From contig MQRK01213622.1 of the NCBI GenBank assembly GCA_001938485.1, forward strand, positions 102,768 to 153,588: a DNA stretch of 50,821 nucleotides, in the 5' to 3' direction. The DNA is from Girardia tigrina (taxonomy: Eukaryota). The notes beneath the pieces were generated by a model, which did no database searches, was not told the DNA's origin, and was given only the letters and a program-made list of their open reading frames with translations. The position numbers were made by a program, and so were the translations under genes. Positions 5,467-40,668 of this stretch are shown piece by piece; the first letter of the stretch is position 1; each line of letters begins with the position of its first letter.

Positions 5467-5968
5467 TGTTAAGAACATTTAGACAAGTCTCATTTGAATG
5501 TTTATTGCAATTACATTTAGAGTCATTACAACTCTCAGAAAGTCTTTCATCGTTTGTCATCATTCTAATTGGTTTTCTTATTTTTATTTTTAATCATGAT
5601 TATTCGAACAATTTTTTAAGTCATTTTTTAAAATATTTAACCTCTAAAAAATATTAATTAAAAAATAATAATTTTTACCATTTTTCAATAAATCCCAAAA
5701 TAATAAAAATGTCATCCAATTATTAAAAATGCATTTAATTTAAATTTTGATAAAAAATATTAAACTTAATTTTAATTGTGAAATTAAAAAGTTGAACTTA
5801 TCAAATAATTATTTTAATTATGTTCGAATAGTCAATCACTTTAAATTTAATAAAAAAATACCAATTTCCATCTGGGTGGGAGAATCACCATTCTAAATTC
5901 AACATACTTAAATCAACATACAGCAGCCATACATTTACACATTCAAACAATTTAAAATATTCCTCACA
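5467..5968 (-). mobile_element. Solo-LTR-like element, family 1, copy A
   Basis: Exact TSD GACCT (5462-5466 and 5969-5973). Minus strand runs TGTGAGGAATATT...GTTCTTAACA, with internal CTCCCACCCAGATGG and AATAAA about 35 nt before the 3' end. Confidence 0.8.
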
Positions 5969-7742
5969 GACCTCATTAGCATTAGCCGAAAATTACAGTA
6001 TCAGGAAAGAAGCAAGAGGCTATTTCTTAGAAACTATACGTACTTGGGCGAATCTGAAGCCATTACTTAGATTATCATTCACCTAAGTGCTTACTAATGC
6101 TATTCTGATGAGCAAGGAAAAGTCAATGAAAAGAAGAATCTTGGAATTTAACCTTTTTTTCAGAGACTAACAATTTTATAACTATCAATTAATTTTTTAC
6201 AAATAATGTACATTATTTTCTTAGATTTGAATGGTAATTTAGTAAAATTATTTAATACAAAGTTGAGAACAAAAAGAGTGAGTTAATTGGAAATCTAAAG
6301 ATGATGAAAGAAAATAGTATAATCATTAATGAAAAGATAAATATTATTAATAAAACATACAAAAGACATAACATCAAAAGAACGTCTCAAGATTCTTTCA
6401 AAATGGAATTCAAACATAATAATTAATTAGTTTTGATAATACTTTTGAAAAGTTTTGGAATAAAATCAGAATATAAATCCGATTTTGAATTTAGAAATTA
6501 TAGATAAAATTATTACAATTATTTAAAAATAATAGAAAGATTATGAATAAAAAATTATTGAAAAGCAAATTATAAAATTTACAATTTATATAATTTAAGT
6601 AAATTATTTTAAATTATTTAAAAAGTCTTTCTGAAGCGCAACACTTATATCGGTCCCTCCTATTCATTTGATTTTTCGTATCAATCGTTAATCCAAATCT
6701 CGTCGGTTTAGGTCGTGATAAGTACCAAAAATAGGTCCAGGTCTTCTTATCTAAGCCATTGTCCATAATTTTGAAAACATAAGTTTAACTTAATATGAAA
6801 GATTTTATATGATCAAAATTTTCCATTACGATATATGATTTAAACGCAGTATTTTCCGGAATGGATATATCCATATAGTGAAAAGAAGTCAAAAACATTT
6901 TTTGGTATGAGTTCCGACCGGAAACGATGAGAAATGGCAAATGAAGTACGAGTAGCAAATTGTGACATGGCAGAAGAACCGCCGTCATAAGCCTGACAAG
7001 CTGATGTTTTAACAAGTTACCAGGTTCAAACTGTATTCCCAAAATACTTAAATTGTATAAAATCGATTAATATTTAACCAAAATTATTAATTGCCATGCA
7101 AATGACTAAAGGTTATTCTAATTTCAGCTATCCATGAAATCAGGAAGTGATCTATGATTCGATGGTAAGATCTGAAAAGAGGTGTTACGAACAGACAGAA
7201 TATATATATATTTAAAATATTTTAAAAAATACCAAAAGAAATTTAATCCGTAAACATAGAGGTTCTCAAGAGCTTTGGTCAACTTTATCTATTACCACAG
7301 ACCTTTAGTAATTAAAAAGCTATTATTTCATTTATTAATTATTCATATTTTCATGGAAAAAATATTTGCAATTTTAAAGCATTTCAGTTTTTATTTTTTA
7401 TTTATAGGCAAATATTTACTGATGTATAAATTGAAAAATTCAATTTAAACAAAAAATGAAAGAAATATAATTTTCCAAAAAATTTGGATATTATTTTTCA
7501 ATATATTATTGATTAAAAAATATTATGTATGTTATAATATCATATTTTAAATAATATAATAATGAAAAAATATAAATACTTTTCATTATTTACATTTTAA
7601 AATAATGAAAAAAATATTAAATAAAATAAAATAAATAAATAAGTATTTTAAATATCAATTTACATATTAACAAGATTATTTTAAAATTACAGAAAATTAC
7701 GTCAAAATTAAATTTTTAATTAATAATTAATAAAATTAAAAC

Positions 7743-8157
7743 TATTAACAACATCAATATAAATTTTGCAACATTTATTATTATCACAAGCGCATTCACT
7801 ATTTGACAATTTTCTTGATCAATTTATTTCTGAGTTCAAACTAATTATTTTCAATAAATGAAAATCTATTAATAAAAATTATTAATTATAAAGAATCTAA
7901 CTAGTTGAAATTAAATCTAAACAATTTTTTAAAAAAGTACATATTAAATTAATATATTAAAATTTTAAATTACATTAAAAAATAAATAATACATTCAAAA
8001 ATTATTTTAAATATTTTTACTTTAAAATTAAATTAAATTATTTTTAATTAGTAGGAATCAAAGAAAATATCAATCATCCATCTGTGTAGGAGAGACACAA
8101 TCCGAATCAATACACAACATGCACAATAACGACACACAATTCAAAACATTCCTCACA
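7743..8157 (-). mobile_element. Solo-LTR-like element, family 1, copy B
   Basis: TSD AAAAC (7738-7742 and 8158-8162). Ends TGTGAGGAATG...GTTGTTAATA, motif CTCCTACACAGATGG, AATAAA about 30 nt from the 3' end. Confidence 0.75.
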
Positions 8158-8810
8158 AAAACAATGATTATTTTACACATTTTTTAGAATTTATTTAAAT
8201 TATCCATTAAAGGATCTCTAAGGGAAAATAATGTGAAATAAGCGCTTTCCAAACACCCTTCTACAAACAAAAACCCATTGCAATATTTCCATAAAAATGT
8301 AAACATGTAAATTCGTTAACGAGTTTCATAAAACTAAAAATCCAGATATAAATAAAAATAAGCCAGATATAAATTTAAAATATTATTTATTTTCATAATT
8401 ATAATTACAATCTTTAAATTTAACTCATCCTTATTAAGAAAAAATAGGTATTATTATTGTAGTTAAAATAAAGAATATTTTACAAGAATATTTTAAATCG
8501 ATTCACTTCGTCTGTTTGTTAGTTAGTCTGAGCGCAACCAATCTCGTGAACACCTTGCGGTGTGTTTGAGGTGAAATTTTACACAAACATGTAATCCTGA
8601 AAACGACAGATGAATCAATTTAAAAATTAAAAAATAAAATTTATAATTTTATTTATTTTAATATTTGAATAAATAAAATTATAAATTTTATTTGTTATAT
8701 TTTTTTATATTTTGTGATAAAAAATTTTACCAGTTTAATGAGCTTTTTTACTCTTGATTTTGTGTGAAATGGAATGTTTTGTAATCAGTTACTTAAAATT
8801 AGTCGAAAAC

Positions 8811-9095
8811 TCTTAACAAATTGCTTGAATATGCAGTTTGAACATTGATTTTGGATCACGAGATCTTATTAACAATGATAATAAAACCATGTCTGTAAAC
8901 AAGTCGAAGAGCACGCTTATAGAAGAGGTAATAGAAGTATTGCAAATGAAAAATTGTAAATGTAACTTGAGTATAAATAATTTCAAAATTCTATGCAAAC
9001 AATAAAAAGTTTTGGAAGAGAGTTCAATGTGAATCAATATTAATAAGATCTTGTGATCACTGTTCAAACGGCATATTCAAGCAATTTATTAAGAG
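8811..9095. mobile_element. Inverted pair of Penelope 3'-end fragments
   Basis: 8811-8872 is the reverse complement of about 9039-9093. The sequence resembles the Penelope C-terminus (LIRSRDPKINVQTA...LLRVF) also seen near 12215-12280. Confidence 0.6.
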
Positions 9096-9523
9096 ACTTT
9101 TATTAATTTTAATCATCCATTTTACATATTTAAGCATTAAAAAATGGGTATCTAACCCTTTTCCATTTTTTTCCGAAAAAAGAAACCACATTTTGAGGAT
9201 TTTAGATGTTAAAACAGCTTTCCAAAGACCGGACTATTTGAATTAGCTATTGGTATTAAACTAGTCTTTCAAAATTATTTGAGTTGAACTGAATAGTTCA
9301 TCATTAATCGACACAGTTCTATCGAATAATAAACCTCATTTAAAAAGTGACTCCGATCTGAAACAAAACTCGATCTTTGTAAACTCTGCAGTTTTTGTCC
9401 TCTGAACAAATGATTATTATAGTGACCTACTTGTCTTGCACCAGTTAACTATAATGATCTGTTTATGTATATTTCATTATTAATATTTATAATTAATAAT
9501 TAATTTATTTTTAAATAAAACTC

Positions 9524-11563
9524 TCAGTATTTTTAAATTGAATTCTCAGTATTTAAAAAAAATCAATTCACCTATTTCACCGTATATACTACAATGTGCG
9601 GAATGTGAAAGTAGGATTTGTATATTGATTGAAATTTCGCCCTTTATGATAATCACAAAAATATTATGCCAAGGAAAGAATAATGCAAATAGTGATTGTT
9701 GCTCAGAATAATGCTTAGTACTGTTTAACCCTTTCGTTACCAGAAACGTATGTGACCGTTTTTGCATATGTGAGCCTCCAATCTCTTTAAATGGTATTGA
9801 GCCGTATGCTCTTTAGAGTATCCACCCCAACTAAAAAGCACTAGCAGCCCCCAGATAGGCCTCCTACGAGGTTGTCAGCTTACCGCTTACGTTGTCTCTT
9901 CGGACCCCTAGTAAAAAACGACCAACCATGTTCGGATGTTCCATGATTTAGCATTCCTTTGGTCGTTCCTGTGGACTTTGAACAGCCAGCGATAGAACAG
10001 TTGAAATTTTGAGATATTTATTTTTGAGACATTGATTTTCATGTCTGGATTACACAGCAGCCTCATTTCCTAGAAGAGCTCTTTCACTCGGCCATTCTGT
10101 TCATTGCATAAGATCTGCGAGATGTTCTGCCCAATGTTATCTACTCTGTTACGTTTCCAAAGTCGAATATTTCTGAGTACTTTCTTACGAGCTTCATTCC
10201 ATTCGTGGTGTGTCGTATCTTTCCTGTTGTTGACAAAATTCTTTCTTTTATCCAATTTTACCCGTAATAATTTCATCAGTTCATTCTGATGATTTTTTAA
10301 CCATCTCTGGCTTAGTGGAATTCGCTGGCTCGGTTTTCCACGACTACAAGCCGATGCTAAAATACAATTTGTAATACCAGTCCAGCAGGGTTCCATATTT
10401 CGGCTTGTAGCTTTTAGAAATTGTTCGATCTTAGCCTTATAGGACGCTAAAAAATTCTGTCAGGTATCTCCTCTTCTTTCCGTTTCTTGCAAGTTTTCCT
10501 TATTGGCCTATTTCTCTTTCTGAGCCATGCAATTAGCACTGAGAGATCATGGTCAGATCCTCAATCAAGTTTAGAATAACTCTTGATGTCGGATATCAGT
10601 CTCGATCGATGTTGGTCAGTCAAAAACAAATCAAGCATCTCTTTCCTTTTCGTGTCCGGATGCATCCAGGTTGTCCTCTGATCCCTGCAATGCTTGTGGA
10701 ACGTGTTCTCTATCCTTAAACCGCAAGAAGCAGCCATCTCTATAATTATTGATCCGTTTTCTGATAAGTTTTCTCCCACATAGTAGGGACCAAATTGTGT
10801 CGTATTCATATCTGTGCGTCTAACACGACAATTAAAATCACCCCCAATGAAGAGTTCATGATGAGTAGATTTAGCAAAGTCTTTCTCGTCCGCTATTAGG
10901 CGTCTGAAATCCGAGTAAAATGAGGATTTCTCCTCTGGAGAGTATCCACAGACCGTAGGACCATAGACAGCGATGATTGTTGTATGTCTTTCTGGAATCC
11001 GACATACTAGTATACGATCAATTTTCGTTATTGTCTCGATGTTATGGCTATCCGACTTTCTGATCATTAATTCGTCATCTCGTATTTTCCTACCCCATAA
11101 GGCGTTCCCGCTGTATAGAATCTCCAATTTCCTGCACAGCATTTCCGCCATAGTTGGTTTTCATCAAAATACACATGTTCAGGTGTATCTTTTCCAGAAT
11201 CACTATATTACGAGTTTTTCATCCGTTAATCATCTGACGTTCCAATTTCCAAGCTTCAGTCTGACACTAGAACCCTTCTCGAGTGGTTCACGCCTCGGGA
11301 GCTTATTGACTGCGAGTCCTGCGAGACTCCTAGTTAGGGAAGTAGAAGTGGTAAATATATTGCGCATAGGGGTGCTGGTCCTATTTGGCAGGTTACTCAT
11401 TAGTTTAACCTTTTTGCACCGACTAGTTACCAGGATCAACAGCGAGGAGGAGAGTAACATCATTTTCCATATATGAGTCGAGATACTGAGGAATGTATAT
11501 TTTTGATTATTTTTTTTCAGAGTTTAAAAAAATTGTTACTGAGAATTCAATTTAAAATACTGA
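9524..11563. mobile_element. Foldback/TIR element hosting a LINE insertion
   Basis: Inverted repeat tcagtatttttaaattgaattctcagta (9524-9551) and tactgagaattcaatttaaaatactga (11538-11563), with extra TACTGAG motifs nearby. Confidence 0.5.
9770..11462 (-). mobile_element. RTE-like non-LTR retrotransposon, internally deleted (APE endonuclease plus 3' end, RT missing)
   Basis: APE motifs LGNWNVR, AVYGPT, GGDFN, TWMHP, LDLFL (ORFs 11230-11463 and 10561-11151). The last zinc finger (CSIAGC...HGTSEHGWSF) and 3' UTR match the 17414 copy. Probable TSD ttttgcatat / ttttccatat. Confidence 0.85.
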
Positions 11564-12089
11564 AACTTTTAACTTTGTTACTGAGCTAATATAATAGTTT
11601 ACTTTTATTTATATATAATTATGTGATATTATAAGCATTATTATCATTTGTTATTTATGTGTTATGTTCTTTTTTTATATTATTACTTTATTTTATTTTT
11701 ATTAATAAATAAGTATTTATTAATGTTATTTAGTAGCAAGTATTTATATTTAAAAGTAATAATTATCCCATAGAAATTAAGTCTCATGAGATAATTCAAA
11801 AAATTTCAATTCGAATCGAAAAATTAATTCGAAATTATTAATTACAAAATTACAAATTACTTCTTACTGGAATATTGGTTGTTTACTTGCTCGCTGTAAT
11901 TATTTTTTGTTCCTATATATTACCTTAAATGGTATAACATAAGATAGAAGAATAGTATTCTAAACAATTATTCAAATTAAACCATTTGAAAACAATTATC
12001 CAAAGTTTTTGGTCTGTTATCATTTATGCTAAATTTCACATTCGAATAACTTTGTTCAAAATAATTTCTATGAAAATATATATATTCAA

Positions 12090-16100: not shown

Positions 16101-16103
<3 letters not shown>

Positions 16104-16172: not shown

Positions 16173-17413
16173 TTAAATACAATTTTAATAGATACAAAAA
16201 CTTTAAAAGGTATATTACGAATTAAATATTATTATTCATTAAAGTATTACTGGGTAATAATAGCAAAATTAAACTAAAATACATAAAGCTGGTCATCCAC
16301 TCCGCCCTGTTTTATCAATGATTGACACGGTTCAGTACTGAGTCGCGAAGGTTCTTAATTCACTATTGAGTCCTTTAATTTCAAATGATTTTGATATTAG
16401 GGATAGCTTTGACTTCCAAGATTTCATTTTGAATCAGGTACCGAAATGTAATTCTGAGTATATGATCTCATTTGATGTCTCCAGTTTATTCACGAACGTA
16501 CTATCGATGAAACCATTGATTTGTGTGAAAAGATGTGGGATGAAAACTCTAGCTCTGTGAATGAATTAATGAACAAGCAGGCACTGAAAGAACTTCTTAA
16601 ATTTTGTGCCAAAAATGTACCTTTTCTTTTTAGAAAGACGGTGTCACAATGGGTTCCCCATTAGCGCCAACTTTGGCATCAATCTTTATGAAGTCGCTTG
16701 AGGATAAAATGAATGCATACCCTGGTGAAAAACATGTGTTGTACAAGAGATATGTAGATGATGTCTTTTTGGTTTTCAGAAATCAATCCCTCATAGAACC
16801 ATTCTTAACATTAATGAATGGTCTTCATCCTAATATTAAATTTACCACAGAATTGGAAGTAGATAATAAACTTCCCTTTCTGGACATTCTTGTAACTAAG
16901 ATGAATGAAGGCTATAAAACTGAATTATTCAAAAAGGCAACAGATACAGATCTTGAAATAACACCACAGAGTTTTTGTGGGGGAAAATATATAGAGGGTA
17001 TGATAAAAGGGTTTGTTCACAGAGTTTGGAATTTGTCGTCCAGTTTTGAAATTGCAAATCAGGGTTTAAATATTCTTAGAAGGCGCTTGAGGGACAATAT
17101 GTATACAAATAAGCAAATAGAACACAACATTAGGGTAACATTAGACAAATTATGTACAGATGCACGAGTCAAGAAACAATTGAAAGAAGAAAATACTGAA
17201 GAATACAAACAAATCATTAAAATTCCATATTCTGAAGGATTTAGAGCTTTTAAGAAGAGTATTTGTAGAACAATAAGTAGTGCTAAAGTAGTCTCTGTCG
17301 CATCCAAAGTTCAAAGTTTCCTCTCAAACAAATCGAAAACAATTTGTGGTTTGCAAGCTAATCTGGTATATAAATTTAATTGTCACGGGCGTCAAAACTC
17401 GTACATCGGAGAG

Positions 17414-19305
17414 TTTGAGAGACAAACAGAAGCACAGCGCACGCGATTTGTATCTTACGAAAGATACAAGAAGAGGCCAGATACCGGAACATAAACGTAT
17501 TTGCTATTTTTATCGACCTTGAAAAGGCATTTGACAGCGTACCCAGGAAAGTTCTCTTGGATTGCCTTCAAGGAATTGGAATACAGGATCGGATGCTAAT
17601 TATCATCATGAAATTTCATGAAGGTTTCACGGGAAGCATTGGAAAGGATAAATTCAGTATGGACAAAGGAGTCCGTCAGGGTTTCCGTATTGGGTCCTCT
17701 ACTATTCAAACTTATCTTTGATCATGCAATTAAGACCGCGATGAAAGAAGGACTATCAGGTGGTGTGAAACTAAAATACAATGGGGAAGAGATGACCGTG
17801 AACAGACTTGCTTATGCAGACGACCTTTGCTTGCTGGACGAGGACTATGGAAATGTCGAACGGAATCTCACGTGTCTCAACACTGTGTTCTTGAATATGG
17901 GGTTCAAAATCAACATTGGGAAAACAAAAATCCTGAATCTCAATGGAGCAAAGTATATTACGGCAAGAGACGAGCTGAATGCCGGAATAGAAACGGTGGA
18001 CGAATTCTGCTACCTGGGATCGATAATTGAAAGGGGAAGAAGCTCAGGTACGGACATCAAAGCCAGAATTCAGAAAGGAGCAGCCAAATTACGGACGATC
18101 AGACCAGTGTTGAAGAACAACAAATTGTCTCTCCGGAATAAGAAGAACATAATTAGCAGCTGTGTATTCCCAGTGGTTTACTACAGCTGGGAAAATTGGT
18201 GGACAAATGAAGTACACGTGAAAAAGCTAAAAGCATTTCACAATCTATGTACTCGGCGAACTTTATGGATTTCGAAAGCCGAAAGGATCAGGATTAATGA
18301 GATATCAATTGGACTGCAAAGCCCAATGGATATCATCACGTGGAGAAGAATCGTACACAATACCAAGGTCGATTTAGAAGAATGTCCGGAGAACGTCAAG
18401 CAGATCAGTGGATGCGAACTCATTGGAGGAAAGAAGATCAACGGTCGGAGAAAGCAACATCTGGTAGAATATCTCAGAGTGGATGCTCACTGGCACTTTG
18501 GAGCCGAGTACAGTTTCGGTGAATTTAAAAGAGACGTTCTGCAGGAAAACTTACTGAAGATGGATGGAAAGATCGAGAAAGTATTCCGACTGAAGAGAAT
18601 TCAAAGAAGCGGGGACGAGCAAACACTAAGTCTGGTGCTACCTCGTCTGAAAGAACACAGCTGCCCGATGCATGCCTGTTACAAACAATATGCGGAAGTG
18701 AAGGAGTTAAACAGGCATCTCAGAAGAGATCACGAAGGAGCAGAGCCGATCCCGCGGAAGAAGAGAGAGAAGAAAGCCCAGCCACGTCAGAAGAAAAGGA
18801 AATATCAATGTCAACACTGTCCGAGGGAATACAAGGCCGCTGGTTTCCTAAGGATTCATATTCAGAAGAATCATCAAGAAGCGCCAACATCCAACACCCA
18901 GAGAGAAGAAAACTTAGAAGAAGAGAACGAGGAAGAGCCGACATCAAACCAATCAAATCCTCAGTTGCCGGATGCAACTGTGAGTATGCCGAGGATACAG
19001 CCGAACGACGATGCCGAAGAGACGCACCTACAATACAGACTGCCAGCCGATTACAAGACTGCAAGAGGACAATTCAAGTGCCCATTTAGCGGTTGTTACG
19101 CGTCCACCGTAACAGCCAACGGCATGTACGGCCATGGTACCAAGTTCCATGGCTGGTCGTTCGTTACTGGCAAGCCGACTGCTCAGAGGCGGAAGGCCAC
19201 TGACCCCGTAGGAGGCCTATCGGGGGGCCCTTAAGGACTTTAGTTTGGGTGGACCCTCTAAAGAGCCTTAGGTTCAATATCATTACAGAGATGGGAGGCC
19301 CACAT
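17414..19305 (+). mobile_element. 5'-truncated RTE-like LINE (RT plus three C2H2 zinc fingers)
   Basis: Motifs FIDLEKAFDSVPR, GVRQG, LGPLLF, LAYADD, FCYLGS in and upstream of ORF 17618-19234. 11-bp TSD acatcggagag (17403-17413 and 19302-19312). Confidence 0.9.
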
Positions 19306-19783
19306 CGGAGAGACAAATCGTCATCTCAAAACCCGGATTAGCGAGCACTCGCAAATGAGTCGATCGAGTAAGGTTCTTGATCATTGGTTATGNNNNNNNN
19401 NNNNNNNNNNNNNNNNNNNNNNNNNNNNNNNNNNNNNNNNNNACCCGGATTAGCGAGCACTCGCAAATGAGTCGATCGAGTAAGGTTCTTGATCATTGGT
19501 TATGTTGTAAGGATAGAACCTCATCCATTTCAAAAGATGAGTTTTTTGTTCTACAAAAGGGATTTGATTCACATTGCGATCGACAGTTTTGTGAATCTCT
19601 ACTAATAAGACACTACAACCCATCAATTAACATTCAGAATGGGCAAAGTAAGGTTATTTCAATACTTAAAATTTTTAATTAAAATATTTTTGCCATTATT
19701 ACCCAATAATCCTCTAATGAATAATAATATTTCATACGTAATATACCTTTTAAAGTTAATGTATCTATTAAAATTGTATTAAA

Positions 19784-21080: not shown

Positions 21081-21797
21081 CATATAAATTATTGAAAAAG
21101 TAGTAACCCAAAAATGGATTTCAAAAGAGCATACTTGCAGATTCACATTGAGCAAAGTTTGGGGGTTCATCAAACGGTAAGGTGGCGAGGTAAAACGTTC
21201 TTACTTACTCATTTAGGATTTGGATTATGCTCAGCACCAAATATCATAACGAAGATTGTAGATCAATTTGAACGATGATCTCAAACGAGGTGTATCCAGC
21301 TATATTTATAACTTATATTGTGACGAGACATATATTACTGTGCAAGAGGTGCGAAGGCATTTCCTTGAGTGGGGTTTGGAATCGAAAGAACCGGAGAAAA
21401 TTTGGAAAAATGATCCGGTTAGATTGTTAGTTCTAAAAATAGATAAAGACTGGAATTGGTCCAGAGACCGAGAAGTTTCGGAGTTAGAAGGTGAAAAGAT
21501 AACAAGACGAAATCTACACAGCTTTGTTGAGGAACTAATAAATCACCTACCCATTTGTGGACAATTGAGAATCATGTGCTCAATGTTAAAAAGGATGACA
21601 GCTGCGGAAGAGAAACACTGGGATGAACCTGTAGTAATCGAAGTATTACAGAAGGTGAAAAGTATTAAAATATTTTTCATAGAGAATTGTGATCCAAGTA
21701 AGGGAAGATGGCCAGGGAAACAGGACTCACCAATGACGATTTGGACTGATTCGAGCTCAGAGGTAATTGGAGTCTTGTTGGAAGTGGATAATGAGAT

Positions 21798-23207
21798 TGT
21801 TGGGTTCTTGATCAATATTAGAATTCATTAACACCAAAAATTTATTAATAACACAATTAACAATTATTCAAACAATTTTTAGTTAACAATTTTTATTGTA
21901 ATAAAAATTGTTGTTTTTAATAAAAAAATTTTTGTAGAGGAACTTTTCTATCGTTTTCTTTATGACCAGATACTTATATAAAAATATGAAATTATAAATA
22001 TAAATAACTGATAAGTTATTTAAAATTGAAAATTTTTAATTCTATTTATTTGAAAATTTACATTCATTATTTTTAAATTAAAACCAACAAAATTTTGTTG
22101 TCATATTTTTACTAAATTAACTTTTATTAAGAACACCAATTTGATTTTTTATATTTTTATTTAAACAACAACTTTGATTGTCCTCAAAACAATCTCTGTC
22201 AAAACTTTCGTACATTTGCATTCAAAGCGAAATTGATTAATAGTTTAATTCTCATAACTTTTTTAGAAAATGGGGAAATAAATATTTAAATAAAATATTC
22301 ACTCAAAACTTATTGGATAATAATTAAAATGATAATTAATTATTTAAANNNNNNNNNNNNNNNNNNNNNNNNNNNNNNNNNNNNNNNNNNNNNNNNNNAT
22401 TAATTATTTAAAAAATATTAATTTGATTTATTTATTAAATATTATAAAAATTAATTAATTTATTTAAAATTTTAAAATTATATGAAATTAAAAATAAATT
22501 TAAACATTACATATTTTAAATAATAAGAATTAAAATATTAATCATCCATCTGAGTAGGAGACACATTTCCAAATCAACATACAACATTGAAGTACAAAAC
22601 ATCAAACATTCAAATATTCCTCACAACTTTAATGATTTTTTATTATTTTAGAATTAGTTTAATGTTATTTCTCTTTTTTTTGTGAAACATTTCAAATTAA
22701 TAAAGATTTTAACGTTTTATTTTTTTCATTATTTAAAAATTTTATTATTAATATTTAAAAGCATTTTTACCTACAATTATTTTAATTACCATACAATTTA
22801 AATACCAAAAAATAATTTATAGTATTTTACAGTAATTTACAAATTTTATTATTATTACGATACGTTAATGATAAAAGTCATAATTAATTTTTTTTCACAA
22901 AACTATTTAGAATAACTTTTAAAATTATTACAACCTATTTTATCCTTGTATTTATATATATTTTTTAATCAATTATTTAAAAATCCATTATTTCCCAATT
23001 AATTTCATTTTAAGTTTATTTTTTACTCTACAAATAAAATTCGATTATTCTAGAAAATAACTTTTTAAAATTAATTACGATATATTTTTACATTATAAAT
23101 GTTTTAGAAAAGTTTTGATTTTAAATATTTACTTATTTCAAATATTATTTATAAAAATTATTTATTCAAAAATTTAAAGAATGAGCTTTTCACATGAGTC
23201 CTTCACA
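21798..23207 (-). mobile_element. Solo-LTR-like element, family 2 (about 900 bp plus nested copy C)
   Basis: Exact TSD GAGAT (21793-21797 and 23208-23212); TG...CA ends. Removing it restores the Gypsy reading NEIIEDAAWLR. Confidence 0.88.
22125..22625 (-). mobile_element. Solo-LTR-like element, family 1, copy C
   Basis: Exact TSD ACTTT (22120-22124 and 22626-22630). Ends TGTGAGGAATATT...GTTCTTAATA; motif CTCCTACTCAGATGG. Contains an N gap. Confidence 0.8.
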
Positions 23208-24939
23208 GAGATCATAGAAGACGCCGCTTGGTTGAGACCCAAGGACGACCTAAATCACATAAATCGTAGCGAATTGGATGCTGCAATCAAGGGAATAAAC
23301 TTAGCGGTCAAATGGGGTGCGCGCAGACTGATCCTAAAGGTGGATTCGAAAACAGTGTACGGATGGCTCAACTCAATAATCAATAAAACTCACAATGAGA
23401 AAATACATGCATTAAGTGAGATAGTTATTCGAAGGCGGCTTGAAAGTGTTTGCGAAATCATCGAGGAAGAAGAATTATGTTTATCAATTGAGCTTGTTGC
23501 ATCCGCAGATAACAAAGCTGACAGATTAACACGCTTTCCAAATCAGTGGAATGTAAGGTCACAAACCAAAATTCAGAATTTGGAGAAGGAAATCGAAAAA
23601 AATCATAACCGTTGTCACTTGGGTGTGCAACGCACATTGGAATTGGGCAGAGTGAAAATGTGATCCGAAGTATGGAAAGAGAAGGTGGAAGCCTGTATTA
23701 AAAACTGTGACAGGTGTTGTCATGTGGATCCAGCGATAATGCACAGATGGGAGAAGGGACACCTGTTGTGTAATGAGCTGTGGGAAAGTATTGCAATCGA
23801 CATATCGCATGTGAATGGAAAACCATACCTCACATTGATAGATGGTTACTCTGGATTTACAGTGTGGAGGCAGCTCAGAAATGAATCAGCCAATGAGGTT
23901 GTTTTATACTTAAGGCAAATCATCGTAGAATACGGGTCACCGGATTCTTTCATGTCTTACAATGGAACAATTTTTCAACGACGAGATGTCAACCAACTTT
24001 GCCAAGAGTGGGTAGTTAGACAAGAATATTCATGTGCATACAGGCCTCAAGGCAATGGTGTAATTGAAAGAGTACACAGAACAATCAAACGATCAGTAGG
24101 CAGAACTGGAGGATCGGTTGAAGAATCCGTCTTTTGGTACAACAACACTGCTGGGATACATGGGAAAGCACCGTACGAATTGATGTTTGGGTATGTATCT
24201 CGGAAAGCCGGAGTCAGCAATGTCAGGACAAAATCTAACTGTGAACCAAAACAGGTAGAGTGCGAGAACGACTACTGTGACGTTGCTCGTAATCATTAGT
24301 TGTCGGCGACAGGGTTTATTTAAAGCCTGACAGTAAAAGATGTGATGAAGAATGAAGTGGGCCTCATCAAGTGACAATGATCATCTTAAGAGTTTTGGTT
24401 GAGATAAATGATGATGTTTTGGCGAGGCATGTTTCGTTTTTGCGTCTTACACCAAATAGAAGAAAACATAGCCTAGAAGACGAATGGGCAGAATGCTCAA
24501 TGGAGAGAGAGTTCACAATAGAGAACTATCCCGATGAGGTACCCGATGAAGGCCAGAATTAGTCGGCAAGACCACAACGCTCCAGGAGGACTCCTCGATG
24601 GCATGAAGACTACGACTTTGGTTGATCAGTTTGGTGTGTCCACCAAGGGGGGCGTGTGACGATATTATGATGAAATTGCAAAAATATTATAAAAATAATT
24701 TATTGTATATTTGTTTTAATATTCAGATATTTGTATTTGAATTCAATAAAGCATATTCTTGTTTCTGTTTTATTTATCTTTATATAAAAATACTTACGAG
24801 AGTTTTGTTTATGATTGTCCTTAGAAGAATTCAAATTGTAGTAATATTAAACATTTCGACAAATATAGTGTTTATTAATGTGATTTTTTTTCTGTCTGCA
24901 TAAAGAATGGATATAAAAAAAAATTTTTTGATTTACTAG

Positions 24940-27047: not shown

Positions 27048-27729
27048 TAAAAATAAGTAATTGTAAAAATAGATAACTAATTATTATTTTGTTTAATTCT
27101 AATATTTTTATTTTAAATTTTATTAAAAATATATTTTATTCCAAACTTATTAAGTTTGTATTTTAAATTAATAATCAAATTATTTTCAAACAAAAATTAT
27201 ATTTCAAACATTATTAATACTAGTACAGACAAAATAAAAACTTACATAAACGTATAATGTTGGTCAAAATATCATATAGTTAGAATATAAATAACAAATG
27301 CTACGACATATGTGTCGATATTGGTTTAAAATCAATTTTTTTCTGGTGTGTGTCAAATGGACTCACATTCAGCAGTAGTGTTAAAGTCTTACATTTTTAA
27401 ATTTGTAAAAAATATTTTATTTAAAAATTTTTTAAAAAATATTCAAATTCTAACTTATTAAGCTTGTATTTTAATTTAGTAATTTATTTATATCAAAATT
27501 CTTTACCATTTTTAATTAAAGTTATTTGATAATACATTTCCAATTTTTTATTATAAAAACATATATCAACTTTTCTTATACTAATCATAAAATTCTTAAA
27601 TTTTAATTTATGACATATTATAAATGTTTTTGAAATTTCTTTTATAGAATTTAAATTCAAAAATATATACGAGTTTCCAAAAATCCTCACAATTGTTATT
27701 TACATTATCCGAAAGGTTCAAAATATTCA

Positions 27730-27826
27730 AGATATCAATCTTCCATCTGGTTTGAACAAATGCAATCCTAAAAACAACATTCCAAACACAAAATACAATA
27801 AACACCATTCGAAAATATTTCTCGAA
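27730..27826 (-). repeat. Degenerate family 1 terminus (copy F)
   Basis: tatcaatcttccatctgg, then CA-rich aaacaccattc...aatatttctcg, closely resembling copy E. A second terminus-like tcctcaca lies near 27685-27691. No clear TSD. Confidence 0.6.
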
Positions 27827-27984: not shown

Positions 27985-28970
27985 AATATCAGAATTGTAT
28001 ATTTGAATATTTCAAAAATATATCTCATAAATTTCATTGATAAAAATTAAAATGAATTTTATTTATTTTTAAAAATATTAATTTGGTTTAATCGATTATC
28101 AAATATAAAATAAATTATTTAAAATTTTCGGTTCATGTATAATGGTGCAATTAAATTAAATCAAGTTATTTTATTTAATTCAATCATTTATTTTTTATAA
28201 TTATAATAAGGATAATTAGATGGATCTAAATTATAAATAATTAAAACCAAATAAATATTTTTTTAACATCTGAAAGATTTCTTTCACTCTAAACATTGTT
28301 TATTTTTTTTGAAGGAAATCTCTCAATCAGTTTTGATCTTATCTAAAATGGTGACACTTTCTTTTGAAACAAAATTTTTCAATTCCTGAAATATTAATGG
28401 AAAATAATTTATTAACATAAATAAATTTGAAATAAATTTAAAGATGTTTATTTCAAATATGAAACTTAGAAATTATTTATTAATTGTGATCACTTAATTT
28501 ACGGAAATATCGTCTTACAACCGTTTTGTGACGTAATTGTTTAAATCGTTGTTTGTTGGTTTTAGATTTTGATTTAAATATAACTTGTTCGTTGTTCATT
28601 GTGTTGTTGCTACACGTTTTATTGGACATAGGAGTGCAGTGTGTTTTAAGTTAATTTTACGACAATATATTTATCATTTTAAACATTCTGAACTAAAATT
28701 ACCAATAACGGTATTAATATGATTTTTGACATTATTATTATTATTATTACACAAAAAAAGTATTAACAAAACTATTGTAATTTTATATTGCTCAAATTTA
28801 TTATTCTTTTTAATTTCAAATTATCCGAATCAGAATTGTATATTTGAATATTTTAAAAATATACCTCATAAATTTCATTGGTAAAAATTAAAATGAATTA
28901 TTTATTTTAAAAAATATTAATTTGATTTATTCATTTATCAAATATAAAATAAATTATTTAAAATTTTATA
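27985..28970. repeat. ~145-bp direct repeat (27985-28130 and 28828-28970) related to the interior of copy C
   Basis: Near-identical atcagaattgtatatttgaatattt...aaattatttaaaatttt. Resembles about 22290-22480, and each copy is followed by an acatctg motif. Confidence 0.65.
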
Positions 28971-29399
28971 GTTATTTTTAAATTAGAATTAATTATTTCA
29001 ACTTTAACCTTAAAAGTAAATTAAATTAGTTTCTGTGATATCTTACAAGATTATTTAGTTACTCTGGATATGTAACATCTGTGGAGTAATACTCTAACTG
29101 GTCAACCCTAGATGATTGACTCAGAATAACCAACATCTAATTATATATAATCATGTTAATGTAAGTAATAATAATAATTTTTTAAAGATAATTAAATATT
29201 CTATTCAATAATGATATGTTGGTTGATTGGAATATTTAAATCAAAAAAATATTAATTCATATACTACTGCTGAAGACGTCGAAGTTGAAACTTAATAGGC
29301 ATAACTAAACACAAATTCCTGACTGTAATTTTAAATATTTCTAACATGTACCAAAAAATAAATCAAAACATTAAGGTTACATTATTCAAATTATGTACA

Positions 29400-34025: not shown

Positions 34026-35435
34026 TATATGATTTCAGGAAACATTTGTTTAAGATAAATTGTGGAACTAGTTTTTACTTAGCCACTGGTTTCCCTGTTA
34101 GTATCAGACGCTAATATTAAGGTTTTTAAGAAAATTATTTCATACTTCACATTATTTTTGTAAGATCATTTAAGAACATATAACGAAAGATTGCTTCATT
34201 TATAGACAAACGATTTTTTCTTCATTTAATATTAAATTATTCAATAAAAATTAATCAAAATTTATTGAAATATTTTTTAAAAGAAGAAAAATTTTTCAAA
34301 TATTTATAAATTATTCTAACAATTTATTTTCATTAATTAGATCATTATAAAATTGTTTAGTTGTTTTGTAAGTTAAGACTCATTTAAAATAAAAATAATT
34401 TTATTTTTCATTGAAATTTTCAAACTTTCATATTTAATATTTAAAACTTTATTTTTAATAAATTGTTTTAATTTATTTTTTTATGAATTTCAAAATTTAA
34501 ATGCAATTATTATTCATTGAAACATCTTGTTTCATCCTATCTGTGGCAGTTGATTTGGAGCTCGGACGCTTCGACCTGGGCCTATTTTATTTTTGATGAT
34601 AGTTTGTTCATCGATATTGTTTCTTTAGTAATAAAATATCATGTTTAAATTAAGTTCAAATTTCGTTAAAGTTCAAAAAACTTTATTTCACAAAAGCATT
34701 CAATTTGGCTAGCAATCACAATCACGAGATTCGATGTCGTTTAGTGAATAAATCACCAAATATCATTCGCAAAATTTCTCTTAAAAAATTGCTTATAATA
34801 AGAAATTTCATATTTGCCTTCACTCAAAAGATCAAGTTATAAAATGATCAATTTTTTGCCAAAGTCTCAATCTGATTGGTTAAAAAACCAGAGCAAGTCA
34901 TTTTAATAACTACATCCACTTTAACAAACACTCGCTCGACAACAATAATTTCACAATGACTCGGTCATGATCGCCAAGTCATTTGTTCATTTTAATTGAA
35001 CAAATTTCAAATTTTTTTTATGTTAAATTAATATTTATTATTGTTTAATATTTGTTTTTTATATTTTTTATTTGCATATCATATCAGGGTTTTCAGAAAG
35101 TTCTGTTCTAATTTTTTAAGGTTACCAATCGATAGTTAAATCTTTCTTAAGAAAGATAAAAATGTAAAAGAAATGTTTCAAGTTCAAACAACCAAAAATA
35201 TTAAAAAAAATGATCAAAGTTTCCACCATCAGCGTTCCACCTTCAAATGCTTTCAGAAGCTCTCAATGATGGTTTAAAGTTCTTTGGTGGTAATTTCATC
35301 CTAAACTTTCTTCAGAACCGATTTCAAGACTATTAAGAATACCGATATGGTTTTTCGAACATTTATTTTCATTACAATTTGAATTGCCTTTCAAACAACT
35401 CTCAGCCAAGCTTTCAGAATTTGACATCTTTCTAA

Positions 35436-35838
35436 ATTGATAAATTTTGTTAAAAAAACAATTATTCGAACAAATTTTCCTTTTAAATCATTTCAGATTT
35501 TATTTTTAAAAATTCTACTTTTATAAATTTGTTAATAATTTTATGTAAAAATTAATTTAAATTTAAAAATGATTTTATTTAAAGAAAAACATTTATTTAC
35601 TTAAAATTAAAAACAAGTTAAAAATTATTTACTTATTAAAAATTATTGATAAATTTTGTTAAAAAAACAATTATTCGAACAAATTTTCCTTTTAAATCAT
35701 TTCAGATTTTATTTTTAAAAATTCTACTTTTATTTGTTAATAATTTTATGTAAAAATTAATTTAAATTTAAAAATGATTTTATTTAAAGAAAAACATTTA
35801 TTTACTTAAAATTAAAAACAAGTTAAAAATTATTTACT
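35436..35838. repeat. Near-identical ~200-bp tandem duplication
   Basis: attgataaattttgttaaaaaaacaattattcgaac...aaaattatttactt occurs twice, with a 4-bp indel. Confidence 0.85.
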
Positions 35839-35949
35839 TTATTTAAACTTTTGATATTAATATTTGAAACAATTTAATATTTTAAAAGTTTTTTAATATC
35901 TTATGTTGAAATTTAAAATGCAAATTATGCTATTCATCGTGAATTTCCA

Positions 35950-36059
35950 AAATACCAATTTGCCATCTATGTGGGAGAAACACATTTCCAAATACTAAAC
36001 TCAAAATACAAAAATCAATATACCAATTTCAAAATACCAAATTTAAAATATTCCTCACA
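35950..36059 (-). mobile_element. Family 1 solo-LTR-like 5' end, copy D
   Basis: TGTGAGGAATATT...CTCCCACATAGATGG abuts transposase sequence exactly at the terminus. Left end and TSD not found. Confidence 0.7.
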
Positions 36060-36756
36060 AAGGCGTTCACCATTGTGTATCTTTTGCTCAAGATTTTCTG
36101 TTCCAAGATCGACCAGATTGATAAGTCGAGGGGGCTCAAGTTTGGTAAATTACTAGACCAAACATCCTTGTCCCAGTATCCCGGAAAGAGTTGATTACAG
36201 ATATTTATTGTTGACTGAGCTTCATGGGCCGGGGTTCAGTCTTGTTGTGGCTCAAATCCAGTCGGACCATATTGATTTGAATCTCATGGCTTTACCAGAT
36301 TTATCAGAACACATTTTGATAAATTTGAGCATTAACTTTCACATTTCGGTGAGTGAATACGAGTGCGATCTTTCGGTAGCACTTACCATTACTGACTTTA
36401 GAAAATACTTCTTGAGCTTCAATTAAGCCACTAAATTTTTCTTCAAACCGTGCTTTAGAAATTGAAGAAGATTTTTGTAGTTAGATTGAATAGTAAATAT
36501 TTTCTCATCCGTGAATAACATTCGTTTCAATCGACTACCAGCTACCAGATTCAACATTTTGCTGGAGTCAACATTAGAGTCATTTTAGAACTATACTAGA
36601 CATAGTACTAAATGAAGTACCTATCTAGAAATATTTCATATTGAAATAATAAATTACTTCTTGATATGAATTGTACTGTAGAAGTACTTAAGTTAATTTT
36701 ATTGAAATTGGAATTCAAATTCCTATTCTAAATTTTTCCTTCAATTTCCAATTTGA

Positions 36757-36922
36757 ACAACCTGGTTATACTGCCTTCCGACTATATAACCATGTTGACG
36801 CCGTTCTTATCGTGGACACCCGATCGACATAGAAACAATGTTAATAGAACTCCCCATCTCAAACCATTCTCAGGCCAAGCCTCCAAGTCGCTGGATTACA
36901 GGCGAACACCACTACACCCGGC
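36757..36922 (-). pseudogene. 3'-truncated SRP RNA (7SL) copy
   Basis: Reverse complement GCCGGGTGTAGTGGTGTTCGCCTGTAATCCAGCGACTTGGAGGCT...GGAGTTC...GATCGGGTGTCC...CAACATGGT...ACCAGGTTG is colinear with metazoan 7SL, including helix 6 with a GGAA loop. Helix 8 and the 3' strand are absent. Confidence 0.9.
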
Positions 36923-38089
36923 AATGTTGAATCTGGTAGTCTCTATTTCCCATAGTCTCTCAAGAAGTCGATTTGATAACTACTCAACCCACGCTGTTTT
37001 TGGATAGTTGTTCACTTTTTAGTCTATTTCCATGTTTCTGTCGATCATTCGTATCGAAGGCATAGGGTTTTGGCGGATCTTGCAACGAACCTTGTTGATA
37101 TTGACTGGAGTGACTGTACTTGGCGATCTGCCGCTCTAAGTGTGATCGCTCTCATTTCCTAACTACTTGTTTTGTTTTATGGCCCTGTTAATCATTCGAT
37201 CATCACAGAAAAATATTGATGCCTAGTTTTTCCTGCTTTCAACACGTCTCTTTCTCACATCCATTTTCCTAAAAATAAAGAATTTTATTTTTTAAATTTG
37301 GTGATTTTTTTGTAAATTATATTAAAACAAGTGACATAAGATAATAACAAAAAAAGTCTCTAAGAAATACACGTGCTCAATAATCTTTTAGAAGTGAGGC
37401 AGAACTTTCTGAGCACTCTGTATATCCTGTAAAAGCGAGGAAACAAACACGTACACAAGATCAATATTGCCATTCAAAATCATAAACAATGAAAATGCGA
37501 TTCCAAACTCAAATTAAGATTGTCTTTTTAGCAGAAGAATAATTCTCGATATTATTTACTAAAATAAGAATAAAATTATAAATAAAGATATATTCTGAAA
37601 CACTTATTTTATGATGTTTAAATGGGGCTGGAAAAAAATTAAATTAAAAATAAAATATTATTTCAATTAATGTCAGAGTCATATAAATATTTCCACATAT
37701 ACGTATATTAAAAAATTATAATAATTCTTTAAAGAAAAGAAATATGATTATAATGAAAAAAAAGCATTTATTTGAAGATTTCTGTTGGGAATATAATTCT
37801 ATATGATCATTAAAAATTTATGGAAAAAAATTGAACGCTGCAAATAGTATTTTCTTTAATAATTAATTAGAAATTAATTAAATTTTATTTAAAATAAAAA
37901 CTATTATGGATTATATTTTTTTGACAAAAAAACAATTATGGAAAAAAATAGTGAATAAAAATTATTTTTTTATTTTTTTCTAAATTACAATTTTCTTTTA
38001 TGGATATTTTAAAAATTTATTTAAATTTTTAAAAATAAATAATACTTTTTCTACATAAAACATGTTATTTTGATATATTTTTTCTTATT

Positions 38090-38608
38090 TTTTCCATTCT
38101 TTTTATTAACTTACTTTGTATATAGGTATATATATATAACGGATTTTGACAAATAGTATCACTAAAATTTTTTAAGTCGGTGATACTATTTGGGTCGTGA
38201 TACTATATGGGTTGGTGATACTAATTATATATGTATATATGTATATATATGTATATATACATATTATATATGTATCCATGGAATTTAGAAACCTATTTTT
38301 GAAGGTCTTCTACTCAATTGATTTTCTTCAAACTTTGCGCACTTACTCATTCTCGATTACAATAAATGATTATGTAAAAATTTGATCGAAAAAGTCTTTT
38401 TAAGATCCCAAAATGGGAAAAAACGGAAAATTCAAAATTATCGAAAAATGTTAATTGCAAGACATCTATTTATAAATTATAAGTAGTTTATATTAACTTT
38501 TAATGTTTTTGAGTTAAAATGTTTTACATTTTAAAATCTTTGTTGGCAAAGTAGAGTTCTGTCTGCAAAAAGAATGGATATAAAAAATTTTATTTTTTGA
38601 TTTACTAG
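38090..38608 (+). mobile_element. Non-autonomous Helitron-like repeat
   Basis: 5' part repeated at 44972-45170; 3' part (tctgtctgca...tttaCTAG|t) repeated at about 24890-24939; internal TA/TG microsatellite. Confidence 0.55.
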
Positions 38609-38619
38609 TTATACAATTA

Positions 38620-39290
38620 TAACCACTATTGTTGGACCACATTCAACTAAAGTTTAATATTCAAAATTTTGTTAAACAACATGAAATGCTTTAACTTTGA
38701 AATTGATTGATGGACATAAGTCTTATATAAAGCGTATAAAGGATTTAATGAACCAAAAAGGAACGTTGAAGATGAAACTCAAGCAAGACCAATACTTTAG
38801 GAATACTTTTCTCTGTTGTCTGAATAAAGTGTAAGCGTATAGCACCCTTAGAAATGCTGAGAACAAGAGGGCAGTCAACAAGGATCTCTTTGTAGCCCAA
38901 ATACATGGTTGGAAAATAGTTTTTTTATCAGAAAAGACTTAACGACCAGGATAAGTCATACGGATTAAAAACAACGCAAGGCCTCATGTCAAAGATACTT
39001 TTAATATACTATACACTTCTGACTTTGTGCTAACAGAAAATTCCTTTTTAAGTTCCACGTCAAAAGGAAATTAGTGGTTTCACTTTCCCTTAACTGAAAG
39101 ACGTTAAGAATTTATTCCCCATACACTTCGAGTTTAAGCCTACTAATTTATGGCTAAGAGCATCAATATGTTTATTTATGAATGAGAGTTTATTTTAAAA
39201 AAGATGTAAAATACATAATTGATTAATGCGTTCCTTTAATTTTTTCATGTTTCAATAAAAATATAAAAATGCTTGAATTTATTTGGTGAA
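38620..39290 (+). mobile_element. Degenerate mariner fragment
   Basis: NARPH (~38972-38990) and YTSDFVLTENSF (YSPDLAPSD-like) remnants. Confidence 0.55.
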
Positions 39291-39487
39291 TCGTTTGATT
39301 TTGGAGTTAGAATTCAGACTTTAAAAATGGTTCTTTCTAATAACAGATTCATTTAGAACTGCATATGACAGATAAAGGGATTATATTAAGTTGAAAATGT
39401 AAATTAAATTAAAGTTATATTTAAAGATTTTTAAACTTTTTTATCATTTTTAATTATTATTTATGTCTATTTTTACCAAAAATTCAG

Positions 39488-39524
39488 GTTGTGAAAATGG
39501 TCCGACTATTATTGAAAAATTCAA
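39488..39524 (+). CDS. Small internal exon of the same host gene (phase 1-2)
   Basis: Acceptor ttttaccaaaaattcAG and donor GTAAGT bound 37 nt reading (G)CENGPTIIEKF, in frame after the 30242 exon. Confidence 0.55.
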
Positions 39525-40310
39525 GTAAGTAATTTTGATATATTTAATTTAATTAGTTTCTATATATTATTAAAATATATTATTTTCATATACCAAATAA
39601 TTAAATAAAAATATTTTATCGTAGACATTTTTATTTCCCTATAGAAATGAAAAATAAATTTTTTTGTATTACTCGGATTTTATTTTCTAAAAGATTTTAT
39701 ATATTTAATGGTGAATTGATTAAGACAATATTTAATCCATCTATTATTTATATGAGATAATATAAAATTTTAAATAACTTTTATTATCTATATTTTAAAC
39801 TTTTATAAAAAGAAAATATAGATATAGAAATAAATTAATAATTGTTTGAAATAAACATACTTAAATATTAATTATTAAATACATTAAGTTTGTCGAAAGA
39901 AATTTCACATTTTATATTTCAATATTTATAGTATAAAAAATTTTAAAATAATTTATTAAATCTCTAAATAATGACAATTGTTAGATGTTGTAGGAACATC
40001 CTCAAGATTATTATTAAAAGTTGATTCTGACATCCAAATTTTATTCTTATACAAAAGTTTTTTTCAAAGCATGATTAACACTAATATTTGAACAAACTTA
40101 TTTTTGTAGAAACAATTCGTTTTATAATACTTAAACTGGTATAAATAAAAATACTTATAATCATAATATTTTATTTTATTTTAATTTTATAAAATTTGCT
40201 TTTCTTCAAATTTTATAATTTTTATTTACAAGAACATTTACAATTATTTAAAAGTTTTGTTAAATTTAATTAATATAAAACTTTCTTTTACAATCATCAA
40301 ATAATTACAT

Positions 40311-40668
40311 TATTAGGAACATTAATTGGATTTTCAATACATTTCTTCACATAATTTTTGTAACTAGTCATTGTTAATTTTGTTAATTCTGTTTTTGATA
40401 AATGTTATTCAAACAAATTTAAATTAAATTGAATTTACAATAATGATTACAAAATAATTTTAATAATTAAAAAAAATATTTTAAGTATATTATTTATGAT
40501 ATATTAATTTAATTTAAAAGTTTTTATTTATATTTTTTAAATTGATTAAATAATTCGACATTTTAAAACATTTAAAATATCAATCTTTCATCTGGGTGAG
40601 AGAAACTCAATCCAAAGACAGCATACCAAACAACATACAAATAAACACCATTCACAATATTCCTCACA
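40311..40668 (-). mobile_element. Solo-LTR-like element, family 1, copy E
   Basis: TSD TACAT/TACAA (4 of 5 match). Ends TGTGAGGAATATT...GTTCCTAATA; motif CTCTCACCCAGATGA. Confidence 0.7.

Follow-up and report, generated by a model that had tools for sequence, protein, structure and literature searches.

The window, that is, the whole stretch of 50,821 nucleotides of Girardia tigrina DNA (contig MQRK01213622.1) that was analysed, carries five whole long terminal repeats (LTRs), A to E, and a fragment, F (Table 1). A sequence-only reading had described at least six copies of a solo-LTR-like family in this AT-rich DNA. A to E are indeed whole LTRs, whereas F is a 5' fragment for which neither the TGTGAGGAAT start, a 3' end nor a duplication was found. 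On the minus strand, A, B, C, and E begin with TGTGAGGAAT, followed by a GT-rich spacer, a CTCCYAC..AGATG box, and a GTTCTTAAYA-like end, as proposed earlier, except that the AATAAA included in that layout is absent from E. Copy D, for which only one end had been given earlier, contains an internal tandem duplication of 205 bp (35436-35856). LTR C lies in a high-copy AT-rich repeat and has a repeated stretch on both sides of its 50-N gap, owing to which its length is inflated. No internal region of the LTR family was found within the window, as had been stated before. A gypsy remnant at 21262-24299 was rejected as the parent: no DNA match was obtained, and the sole match, at 24%, came from an unrelated integrase.

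Table 1. Copies of the LTR family in the window and features of copy A. Duplications of A to E are given as read on the minus strand.
Feature	Position	Strand	Length	Subfamily	Remarks
Solo LTR A	5467..5968	-	502 bp	A	exact duplication AGGTC
LTR-encoded open frame of copy A	5467..5563	-			starts with ATG; its end reads VLN, then the A of the junction ATG
TGTGA at LTR start (copy A)	5964..5968	-			integrase end; in 3' LTRs its bases 3-5 form the pol stop codon
Solo LTR B	7743..8157	-	415 bp	B	exact duplication GTTTT
LTR C	22125..22625	-	501 bp, including a 50-N gap (22349-22398)	C	exact duplication AAAGT
F	27696..27823	-	128 bp	E-type	decayed 5' fragment, 80% to E-type LTRs
Solo LTR D	35331..36059	-	729 bp	D	duplication GCCTT/GTCTT (1 mismatch); paralogous empty sites
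Solo LTR E	40311..40668	-	358 bp, shortened	E	duplication TTGTA/ATGTA (1 mismatch)

All five whole window copies are flanked by a 5-bp target duplication, exact for A, B, and C and with one mismatch for D and E. The earlier count of four copies thus becomes five with the inclusion of D, and its three exact cases stand. By chance, 5-mers at such distances in the window match with a frequency of 0.003 exactly and 0.035 at one mismatch or less. At the same tolerance, a duplication was found in 9 of 10 LTRs lacking the polypurine tract and primer site (five of them the window copies) versus none of 35 LTRs identified as 5' or 3' LTRs, the LTR ends having been called independently of the duplications. 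The integrase would have made these duplications. The search for empty sites suggested earlier was carried out on paralogs: all nine fetched paralogs of the host repeat of C lack the LTR and carry one 5-mer each, and both flanks of D are adjacent in six of seven paralogs. These paralogous empty sites confirm the insertion of C and D. For copy A, whose boundaries coincide with a change in read depth and with loose ends, no joint skipping the copy (an empty allele in other runs) was found among the 15 joints listed out of 118, where the contigs, all short, show presence and not absence. Runs in which only a low proportion of the words occurred were not accepted as evidence for habitat.

Searching the genome for the bipartite motif, as had been recommended, gave 17,705 matches, with 0 for the reversed control. 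In 2,077 exact cases genome-wide the LTR start is preceded by the polypurine tract GAGGGGGA, and in 1,538 cases the LTR end is followed by TGGCGACACA, leading into the primer site and gag. Paired LTRs were recovered at five loci. In L058 the pair shows 440 matches and 6 mismatches around an interior of 4,199 nt, and in L063, where ATGTC stands outside each of the two LTRs, 398 matches and 16 mismatches; L061, L067, and L071 provide further pairs. The whole element of about 5.1 kb consists of an LTR, a 7-nt primer site, gag with two zinc knuckles, PR-RT-RH-IN, the polypurine tract, and the second LTR. With paired LTRs enclosing gag and PR-RT-RH-IN over about 4.2 kb, the parent is identified as a Ty3/gypsy retrotransposon of 5.1 kb. 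The interior matches zf-CCHC (E 6.5e-8 in Gag), protease, RVT_1, RNase H, H2C2, and rve domains, and the PR-RT-RH-IN order recurs in the 93%-identical P0121. The capsid part of Gag had no Pfam match; look-alikes of Retrotrans_gag at 0.94 are a lead only. Among solved structures the best named match of the reverse transcriptase is Ty3 Gag-Pol (E 9e-43), with retroviral reverse transcriptases at 2e-21 or weaker. In the protein search the closest Pol with a name is K02A2.6-like (31% identical), and one named reverse transcriptase match is microsporidian (39%); the top matches are unnamed metagenome proteins, and the named relatives did not yield a clade.

The window copies are thus very probably LTRs of a high-copy Ty3/gypsy lineage, likely left solo by LTR-LTR recombination, which would have removed the internal region; the earlier reading, which saw in them the solo LTRs of a retrotransposon lineage that has diversified, is supported, and the parent has been identified. 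That they are instead copies of some new element, non-autonomous or excisable (SINE, MITE or TRIM) and with no relation to an autonomous LTR element, has hardly any probability left: the window without an internal region and the weakly inverted TG..TA ends would fit such an element, but the same sequences flank gag-pol, follow the polypurine tract and precede the primer site in the numbers given above, and the paired LTRs around gag-pol refute it. It is also improbable that, for some or all of the window copies, the short-read assembler merged the two near-identical LTRs of a whole element into one. The assembly is fragmented into 255,254 contigs, so that a collapsed element may pass for a solo LTR, especially at C, where the gap flanked by a repeated stretch makes both a solo LTR and a collapsed element possible. 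Many motif matches sit at contig ends, and whole elements assemble poorly, as no new LTR pair, and no further whole element with both outer duplications, was found in 20 further stretches. Against a collapse, A, B, D, and E are gap-free and show 7-20% difference to the best relatives in the sample, and LTR pairs differing by only 1-7% were assembled apart elsewhere.

The window copies resemble one another at 71-76% over 95-246 nt, in line with the earlier remark that their interiors are barely alignable. This does not extend to other genomic copies, to which A is 93% identical over 501 nt, B 93% over 417 nt, C 92-96% in two halves, D 83% over 437 nt, and E 80% over 261-282 nt. The interiors of A to E do not align with one another because they represent five different subfamilies. 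At least five LTR subfamilies exist, with internal regions about 70% alike and AT-rich LTR interiors that have diverged. As each window copy is 80-96% like other copies, 5' or 3' LTRs among them, repeat finders would not miss them, and the family, for which read depth on copy A is about four orders higher than on its flanks, is not cryptic as had been supposed. By arithmetic from the motif and tract counts, its share of the assembly is roughly 1-2%. Among the entries listed by literature searches there was no paper on the LTR family, which may already be catalogued in Repbase, Dfam or GyDB.

Open reading frames extend into both LTR ends. The pol stop codon is formed by LTR bases 3-5, within the 5' TGTGA. 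At the other end an in-frame ATG, 22-32 codons within the LTR, begins an open frame that crosses the 7-nt primer site and continues into gag; a second in-frame ATG straddles the LTR end. The frame occupies the last 66-96 LTR bases and is open in all five subfamilies, and it is likewise continuous from the LTR into gag in the independent record P0241. This does not support the claim that constraint is limited to the attachment sites, a single promoter box and the poly(A) signal. In copy A the ATG-led open frame comprises 32 codons at the 3' end; its counterpart in whole elements runs on into gag, and positions 5468-5590 match the gag frame of L058 at 83% over 41 amino acids (tblastn). Copy B itself lacks the ATG at -22 codons typical of its subfamily. 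The last 90 nt of 45 LTRs contain 42 stops in the gag frame versus 271 and 66 in the other two; the gag frame is open in 29 of the 45 versus 4.9% of shuffles, and the second frame, with its 66 stops, is also stop-poor (13 of 45 open). AATAAA is read as Asn-Lys in the gag phase in 31 of 36 occurrences. Under a null model, the probability that all five subfamilies are open with an ATG was 0.0012, with one open copy taken per subfamily.

There is a somewhat better than even chance, judged from these sequence features, that translation of Gag begins at the ATG within the LTR. In five subfamilies this ATG keeps a nearly constant distance and has A or G at -3, although at -29 to -34 it is kept in only four of nine C-type and three of six E-type copies. 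Between subfamilies the residues encoded by the LTR are under weak constraint (pN/pS 0.53-1.08, 30-50% identity), whereas the 24 codons after the junction ATG show pN/pS of 0.18-0.31, so Gag may instead start at the junction ATG. The copies would still be solo LTRs, and the upstream frame would be an untranslated relic or a by-product of constraints on the poly(A) signal and U5. This alternative, possible though short of probable, draws on the sharp rise of constraint at the junction ATG and on the junction MAT, which is invariant in the aligned rows, in part from the choice of search pattern. It does not readily accommodate the position and context of the LTR ATG, the depletion of stops in the LTR frame or the open-frame length differences between subfamilies, which at 3 and 30 nt keep the frame.

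For the remaining signals, the CTCCYAC..AGATG box could with an even chance be a promoter element, and the prospects that AATAAA doubles as a poly(A) signal are about equally balanced. A fixed TATA box was rejected, with 17 of 45 LTRs giving scattered positions. The LTRs start with TG in 45 of 45 cases, by selection, and end in AATA in 41 and AACA in 1 of 45; copy A is the sole LTR of the 45 ending in CA, the others ending in TA, TT or GA. These ends depart from the TG..CA rule. Exceptions within the Metaviridae, in the Zam clade, are listed in PMC3601003, and thus TA ends do not exclude Ty3/gypsy membership. Reverse transcription would be primed by tRNA-Ser(GCT), of which the L123 sequence matches the primer site over 7 nt only; searches for a longer-matching tRNA, with 18 and 11 pattern matches, gave this one tRNA with its 7-nt match. 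No second primer segment was found. Global duplexes of tRNA-Ser with the tract/U3 in 21 LTRs (z -0.5 to +1.8), modelled as a bipartite primer site, and 5'-3' pairing of U3 with the primer/gag region in 11 elements (z -2.1 to +0.9) did not surpass shuffles by a crude method. Pol is probably produced through a -1 shift of frame at GGGAAAC, a heptamer of the X XXY YYZ type. Of 14 complete gag-pol junctions, 10 contain it and 10 have it in the gag frame, and in 6 of 10 the exit is in the -1 frame. A hairpin 3' of the slippery site is 93% paired, with z from +0.8 to -3.3, and no compensatory change was found in 10 of 13 aligned rows.

By anatomy the Mag lineage is nearest, as described for Culex in Table 1 of PMC3286476: both have PR-RT-RH-IN, no env, about 5 kb and one or two ORFs, and they share the 5-bp duplication, a primer site that here is putatively of the tRNA-Ser type, and AATAAA near the LTR 3' end. 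The primer match here is 7 nt only, and a 5-bp duplication with a Ser or Leu primer, though in agreement with that table, is not diagnostic alone. The LTRs are 410-550 bp here versus 119-304 bp in the same table, and end TG..TA (41 of 45) versus TGTT..AACA in Mag A and C (PMC3601003, Table 3). Ty3 of Saccharomyces shares two overlapping ORFs, the best named structure match, and a short 8-nt primer segment next to the LTR (PMC4974528); it differs in that it shifts frame by +1 and has a further primer segment at its 3' end, whereas the frames here point to -1. The microsporidian Ty3/gypsy groups encode a single polyprotein (PMC4202319), whereas gag and pol are separate frames here and the primer site is tRNA-like. 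Ty1 of Saccharomyces, of another superfamily by domain order (Ty1/copia), has a 334-bp LTR, RNA from nt 241 and a 53-nt leader (PMC5454406); by arithmetic from these values GAG starts inside the 5' LTR, with about 13 codons in the LTR, and its primer site lies within GAG (PMC4974528), as here in gag. Ty1 uses tRNA-iMet and a +1 frameshift, versus a putative tRNA-Ser-type primer and a probable -1 here, where 22-32 codons would lie in the LTR, a second ATG spans its end and the start is deduced from sequence.

The family is no new kind of element but an ordinary, very abundant Ty3/gypsy lineage with one oddity, namely that its LTRs likely supply the Gag start codon and first 22-32 codons. The value of the result is mainly one of annotation, as it names a lineage of roughly 1-2% of the assembly, and the 'conserved LTR motifs' of this lineage are shown to be partly coding. 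If Gag starts inside the LTR, the Ty1 layout would also occur in a Ty3/gypsy clade of animals, and whether solo LTRs seed new open frames could be tested on thousands of natural examples. A further-reaching reading, tentative and rather doubtful, is that of an animal Ty3/gypsy clade without a non-coding margin, with the pol stop in the first five LTR bases, the Gag start 22-32 codons inside, the poly(A) hexamer serving as Asn-Lys and the primer site reduced to 7 nt within gag, so that each of more than 16,000 solo LTRs would be a promoter, a start codon and an open frame into host DNA. If this were true, solo LTRs would be a genome-wide source of N-terminal fusions and de novo ORFs.

The window (GC 27%) is crowded with decayed Penelope, LINE, gypsy and Tc1-type mobile pieces. 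Six or more LTR-like copies had been claimed in it by a sequence-only reading, of which five (A-E) proved to be whole; F is a fragment. All five lie on the minus strand and carry the same start and end words. The 5-bp duplications claimed for four copies are present at all five (three exact, two with one mismatch), compared with chance rates in this window of 0.003 per copy for an exact duplication and 0.035 with at most one mismatch. As also claimed, no internal region of the family was found in the window. Two AT-rich stretches resemble a C-type LTR interior and are either old fragments or low-complexity matches.

LTR copies and other mobile pieces in the window
Feature	Position	Strand	Description
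LTR A	5467-5968	minus	TGTGAGGAAT start, GTTCTTAAYA-like end, exact 5-bp duplication
LTR B	7743-8157	minus	TGTGAGGAAT start, GTTCTTAAYA-like end, exact 5-bp duplication
Stretch with LINE	17403-19312		zinc-finger tail; RT frame 17612-19234; 11-bp duplication ACATCGGAGAG at 17403-17413 and 19302-19312
gypsy pol, decayed	21262-21831		DUF7047
Stretch with repeat hosting C	21795-23210		~0.9-kb AT-rich repeat
LTR C	22125-22625	minus	both end words; exact 5-bp duplication; contains 50-N gap
gypsy pol, decayed	23178-23663		RNase H-like
gypsy pol, decayed	23664-24299		rve
F			128-bp 5' fragment of LTR, without start word
AT-rich stretches	28006-28128, 28847-29002		74-78% alike to C-type LTR interior
Stretch with repeat interrupted by D	34900-36600		older repeat, paralogs ~75% alike
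LTR D	35331-36059	minus	both end words; 5-bp duplication with one mismatch; 205-bp internal tandem duplication
LTR E	40311-40668	minus	both end words; 5-bp duplication with one mismatch

The bipartite motif has 17,705 exact matches in the genome assembly, and the reversed pattern has none. The window copies are only 71-76% identical among themselves, over 95-246 nt, but 80-96% identical to other genomic copies; A-E are members of five subfamilies. The description of the interiors as barely alignable thus holds between the window copies and fails against the rest of the genome, and the family, which had been thought cryptic, is large and not cryptic. In public contigs (four runs, three organism labels), copy A is covered about ten thousand times more deeply than the sequence on either side, and loose contig ends fall at 5469 and 5968. 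The exact polypurine tract is present in 820 of the 17,705 motif matches; at face value, simple arithmetic gives about 20 solo LTRs to each whole element, a ratio that is inflated by decay of the tract and by repeat collapse in the fragmented assembly, and about 45,000 LTR starts in all, or roughly 20 Mb. Two further words, absent from the sequence-only reading, are shared among 45 LTRs, GTATGTTG at LTR positions 21-48 (42/45, one mismatch allowed) and TTCGAATAA about 140-150 nt from the 3' end (31/45). The main box (CTCCYAC..AGATG) contains CACCC-like and CAGATG words, which may resemble transcription-factor sites.

GAGGGGGA precedes the motif in two of the first 30 matches fetched; in the genome there are 2,077 occurrences of this tract joined to an LTR start and 1,538 of an LTR end joined to TGGCGACACA. 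Paired LTRs surround gag-pol in five fetched genomic stretches, L058 (440 matches and 6 mismatches between the LTRs, interior of 4,199 nt), L063 (398 matches, 16 mismatches, each outer side bearing ATGTC), L071, L067 and L061, in agreement with the solo-LTR reading. The interior encodes a gag with CCHC knuckles, protease, RT, RNase H and integrase; the order PR-RT-RH-IN was read in a 93%-identical protein (P0121), and the best named match of the RT among solved structures is Ty3 Gag-Pol. Upstream of the tract, interiors are about 90% alike within subfamilies and 70% between them. Stops, frame changes or deletions interrupt every genomic copy read, and their positions vary from copy to copy. 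Many unnamed metagenome-assembly Pol proteins (P0121-P0203, 48-93% identical) share an RN(V/I)EWLKPF..G end motif at the tract, indicating that the lineage extends well beyond the G. tigrina genome. In L061 (4034-9448) and L149, an LTR has a tract-like word before it and the primer site after it, an arrangement of tandem elements with one LTR in common; the two LTRs differ by 7%.

Among LTRs that have no tract and no primer site, 9 of 10 carry a duplication (at most one mismatch) when the ends are called from motifs alone; among 5' or 3' LTRs, 0 of 35 do. The search for empty sites succeeded among paralogs of the sequences around C and D and not for A. The LTR is absent from all nine fetched paralogs of C's host repeat, each of which contains the 5-mer once, and the flanks of D are adjacent in six of seven paralogs, with a single 5-mer in the three printed; no empty allele of A was seen among 15 of 118 joints listed from contigs of other runs. 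The window copies are very probably solo LTRs, derived from a Ty3/gypsy lineage that is abundant in this genome.

The AT-rich repeat hosting C is present in many copies that are 96-97% similar (1,985 candidates) and itself splits the decayed gypsy pol, giving three nested layers. Pieces adjoining the host repeat of D are, judged by eye, presumably decayed Tc1/mariner transposase. The LINE interrupts a Penelope GIY-YIG endonuclease within its YIG motif.

Both LTR ends lie in reading frames. The integrase frame continues across the tract to a stop codon at LTR bases 3-5, and the Pol C-terminal end is the same (RGM) in 10 of the 11 most similar Pol proteins. An ATG that spans the last LTR base and the primer site opens MATHDH, the conserved part of Gag, and an in-frame ATG lies upstream at codon -31 (A), -32 (C, D, E) or -22 (B). 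In the last 90 nt of 45 LTRs, the gag frame has 42 stops versus 271 and 66 in the other frames (169, 143 and 160 in a control region) and is open in 29 LTRs versus 4.9% of shuffles, the copies not being independent of each other. A conservative star model with one open copy per subfamily puts the probability of five open frames at 0.018, or at 0.0012 if the ATG must be kept as well. A continuous LTR-to-gag frame is also present in an independent record (P0241). Between subfamilies, pN/pS is 0.53-1.08 for the LTR-encoded residues versus 0.18-0.31 after the junction; this weak constraint and the non-independence of the copies count against an LTR-encoded Gag start. On balance, the frames somewhat favor a Gag that starts inside the LTR. 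AATAAA is present in 36 of 45 LTRs, usually at a distance of 37 or 40 nt from the end; 31 of the 36 occurrences are in the gag frame, and the hexamer would likely double as a poly(A) signal.

The primer site matches tRNA-Ser(GCT) over 7 nt; a longer tRNA match or a second primer site was searched for and not found. The GC-rich end of a separate repeat family (L108-L121, L124) mimics a tRNA T-arm pattern and was ruled out as a tRNA by ARAGORN. gag and pol overlap at GGGAAAC in 10 of 14 complete junctions, with the gag frame around it in 10/14 and the -1 frame out in 6/10. A 10-pair hairpin follows, with no compensatory changes in the 10 of 13 rows aligned, three being left out for indels or a broken stem.

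Domain order, RT and polypurine tract agree with Ty3/gypsy, whereas the LTR 3' end departs from the TG..CA rule, to which exceptions within Metaviridae are published (PMC3601003). The 5-bp duplication, candidate Ser primer and 5 kb size agree with the Mag lineage as described in PMC3286476, a likeness by features; clade names follow PMC6238403. If Gag starts in the LTR, so that gag also contains the primer site, the layout would be that described for Ty1 (PMC5454406, PMC4974528). Elements of microsporidia are described as having a single ORF (PMC4202319), whereas gag and pol overlap here. Planarian genomes are reported to be rich in LTR/Gypsy DNA (PMC11410931); the literature search, with repeat databases and supplements outside its scope, listed no paper on this LTR family.

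Whole elements, duplications, empty sites, subfamilies and reading frames are seen directly in the sequences. By analogy with established Ty3/gypsy biology, the element would be transcribed from its 5' LTR to yield Gag and a frameshifted Gag-Pol, reverse transcription would be primed by a tRNA, integration would create the 5-bp duplication, and later LTR-LTR recombination would leave a single LTR. From one subfamily to another the LTR interiors change quickly, whereas integrase, the pol stop and the gag frame, and probably promoter and poly(A) signals, hold the ends. The element is mostly ordinary, and its coding LTR is the modestly interesting feature.
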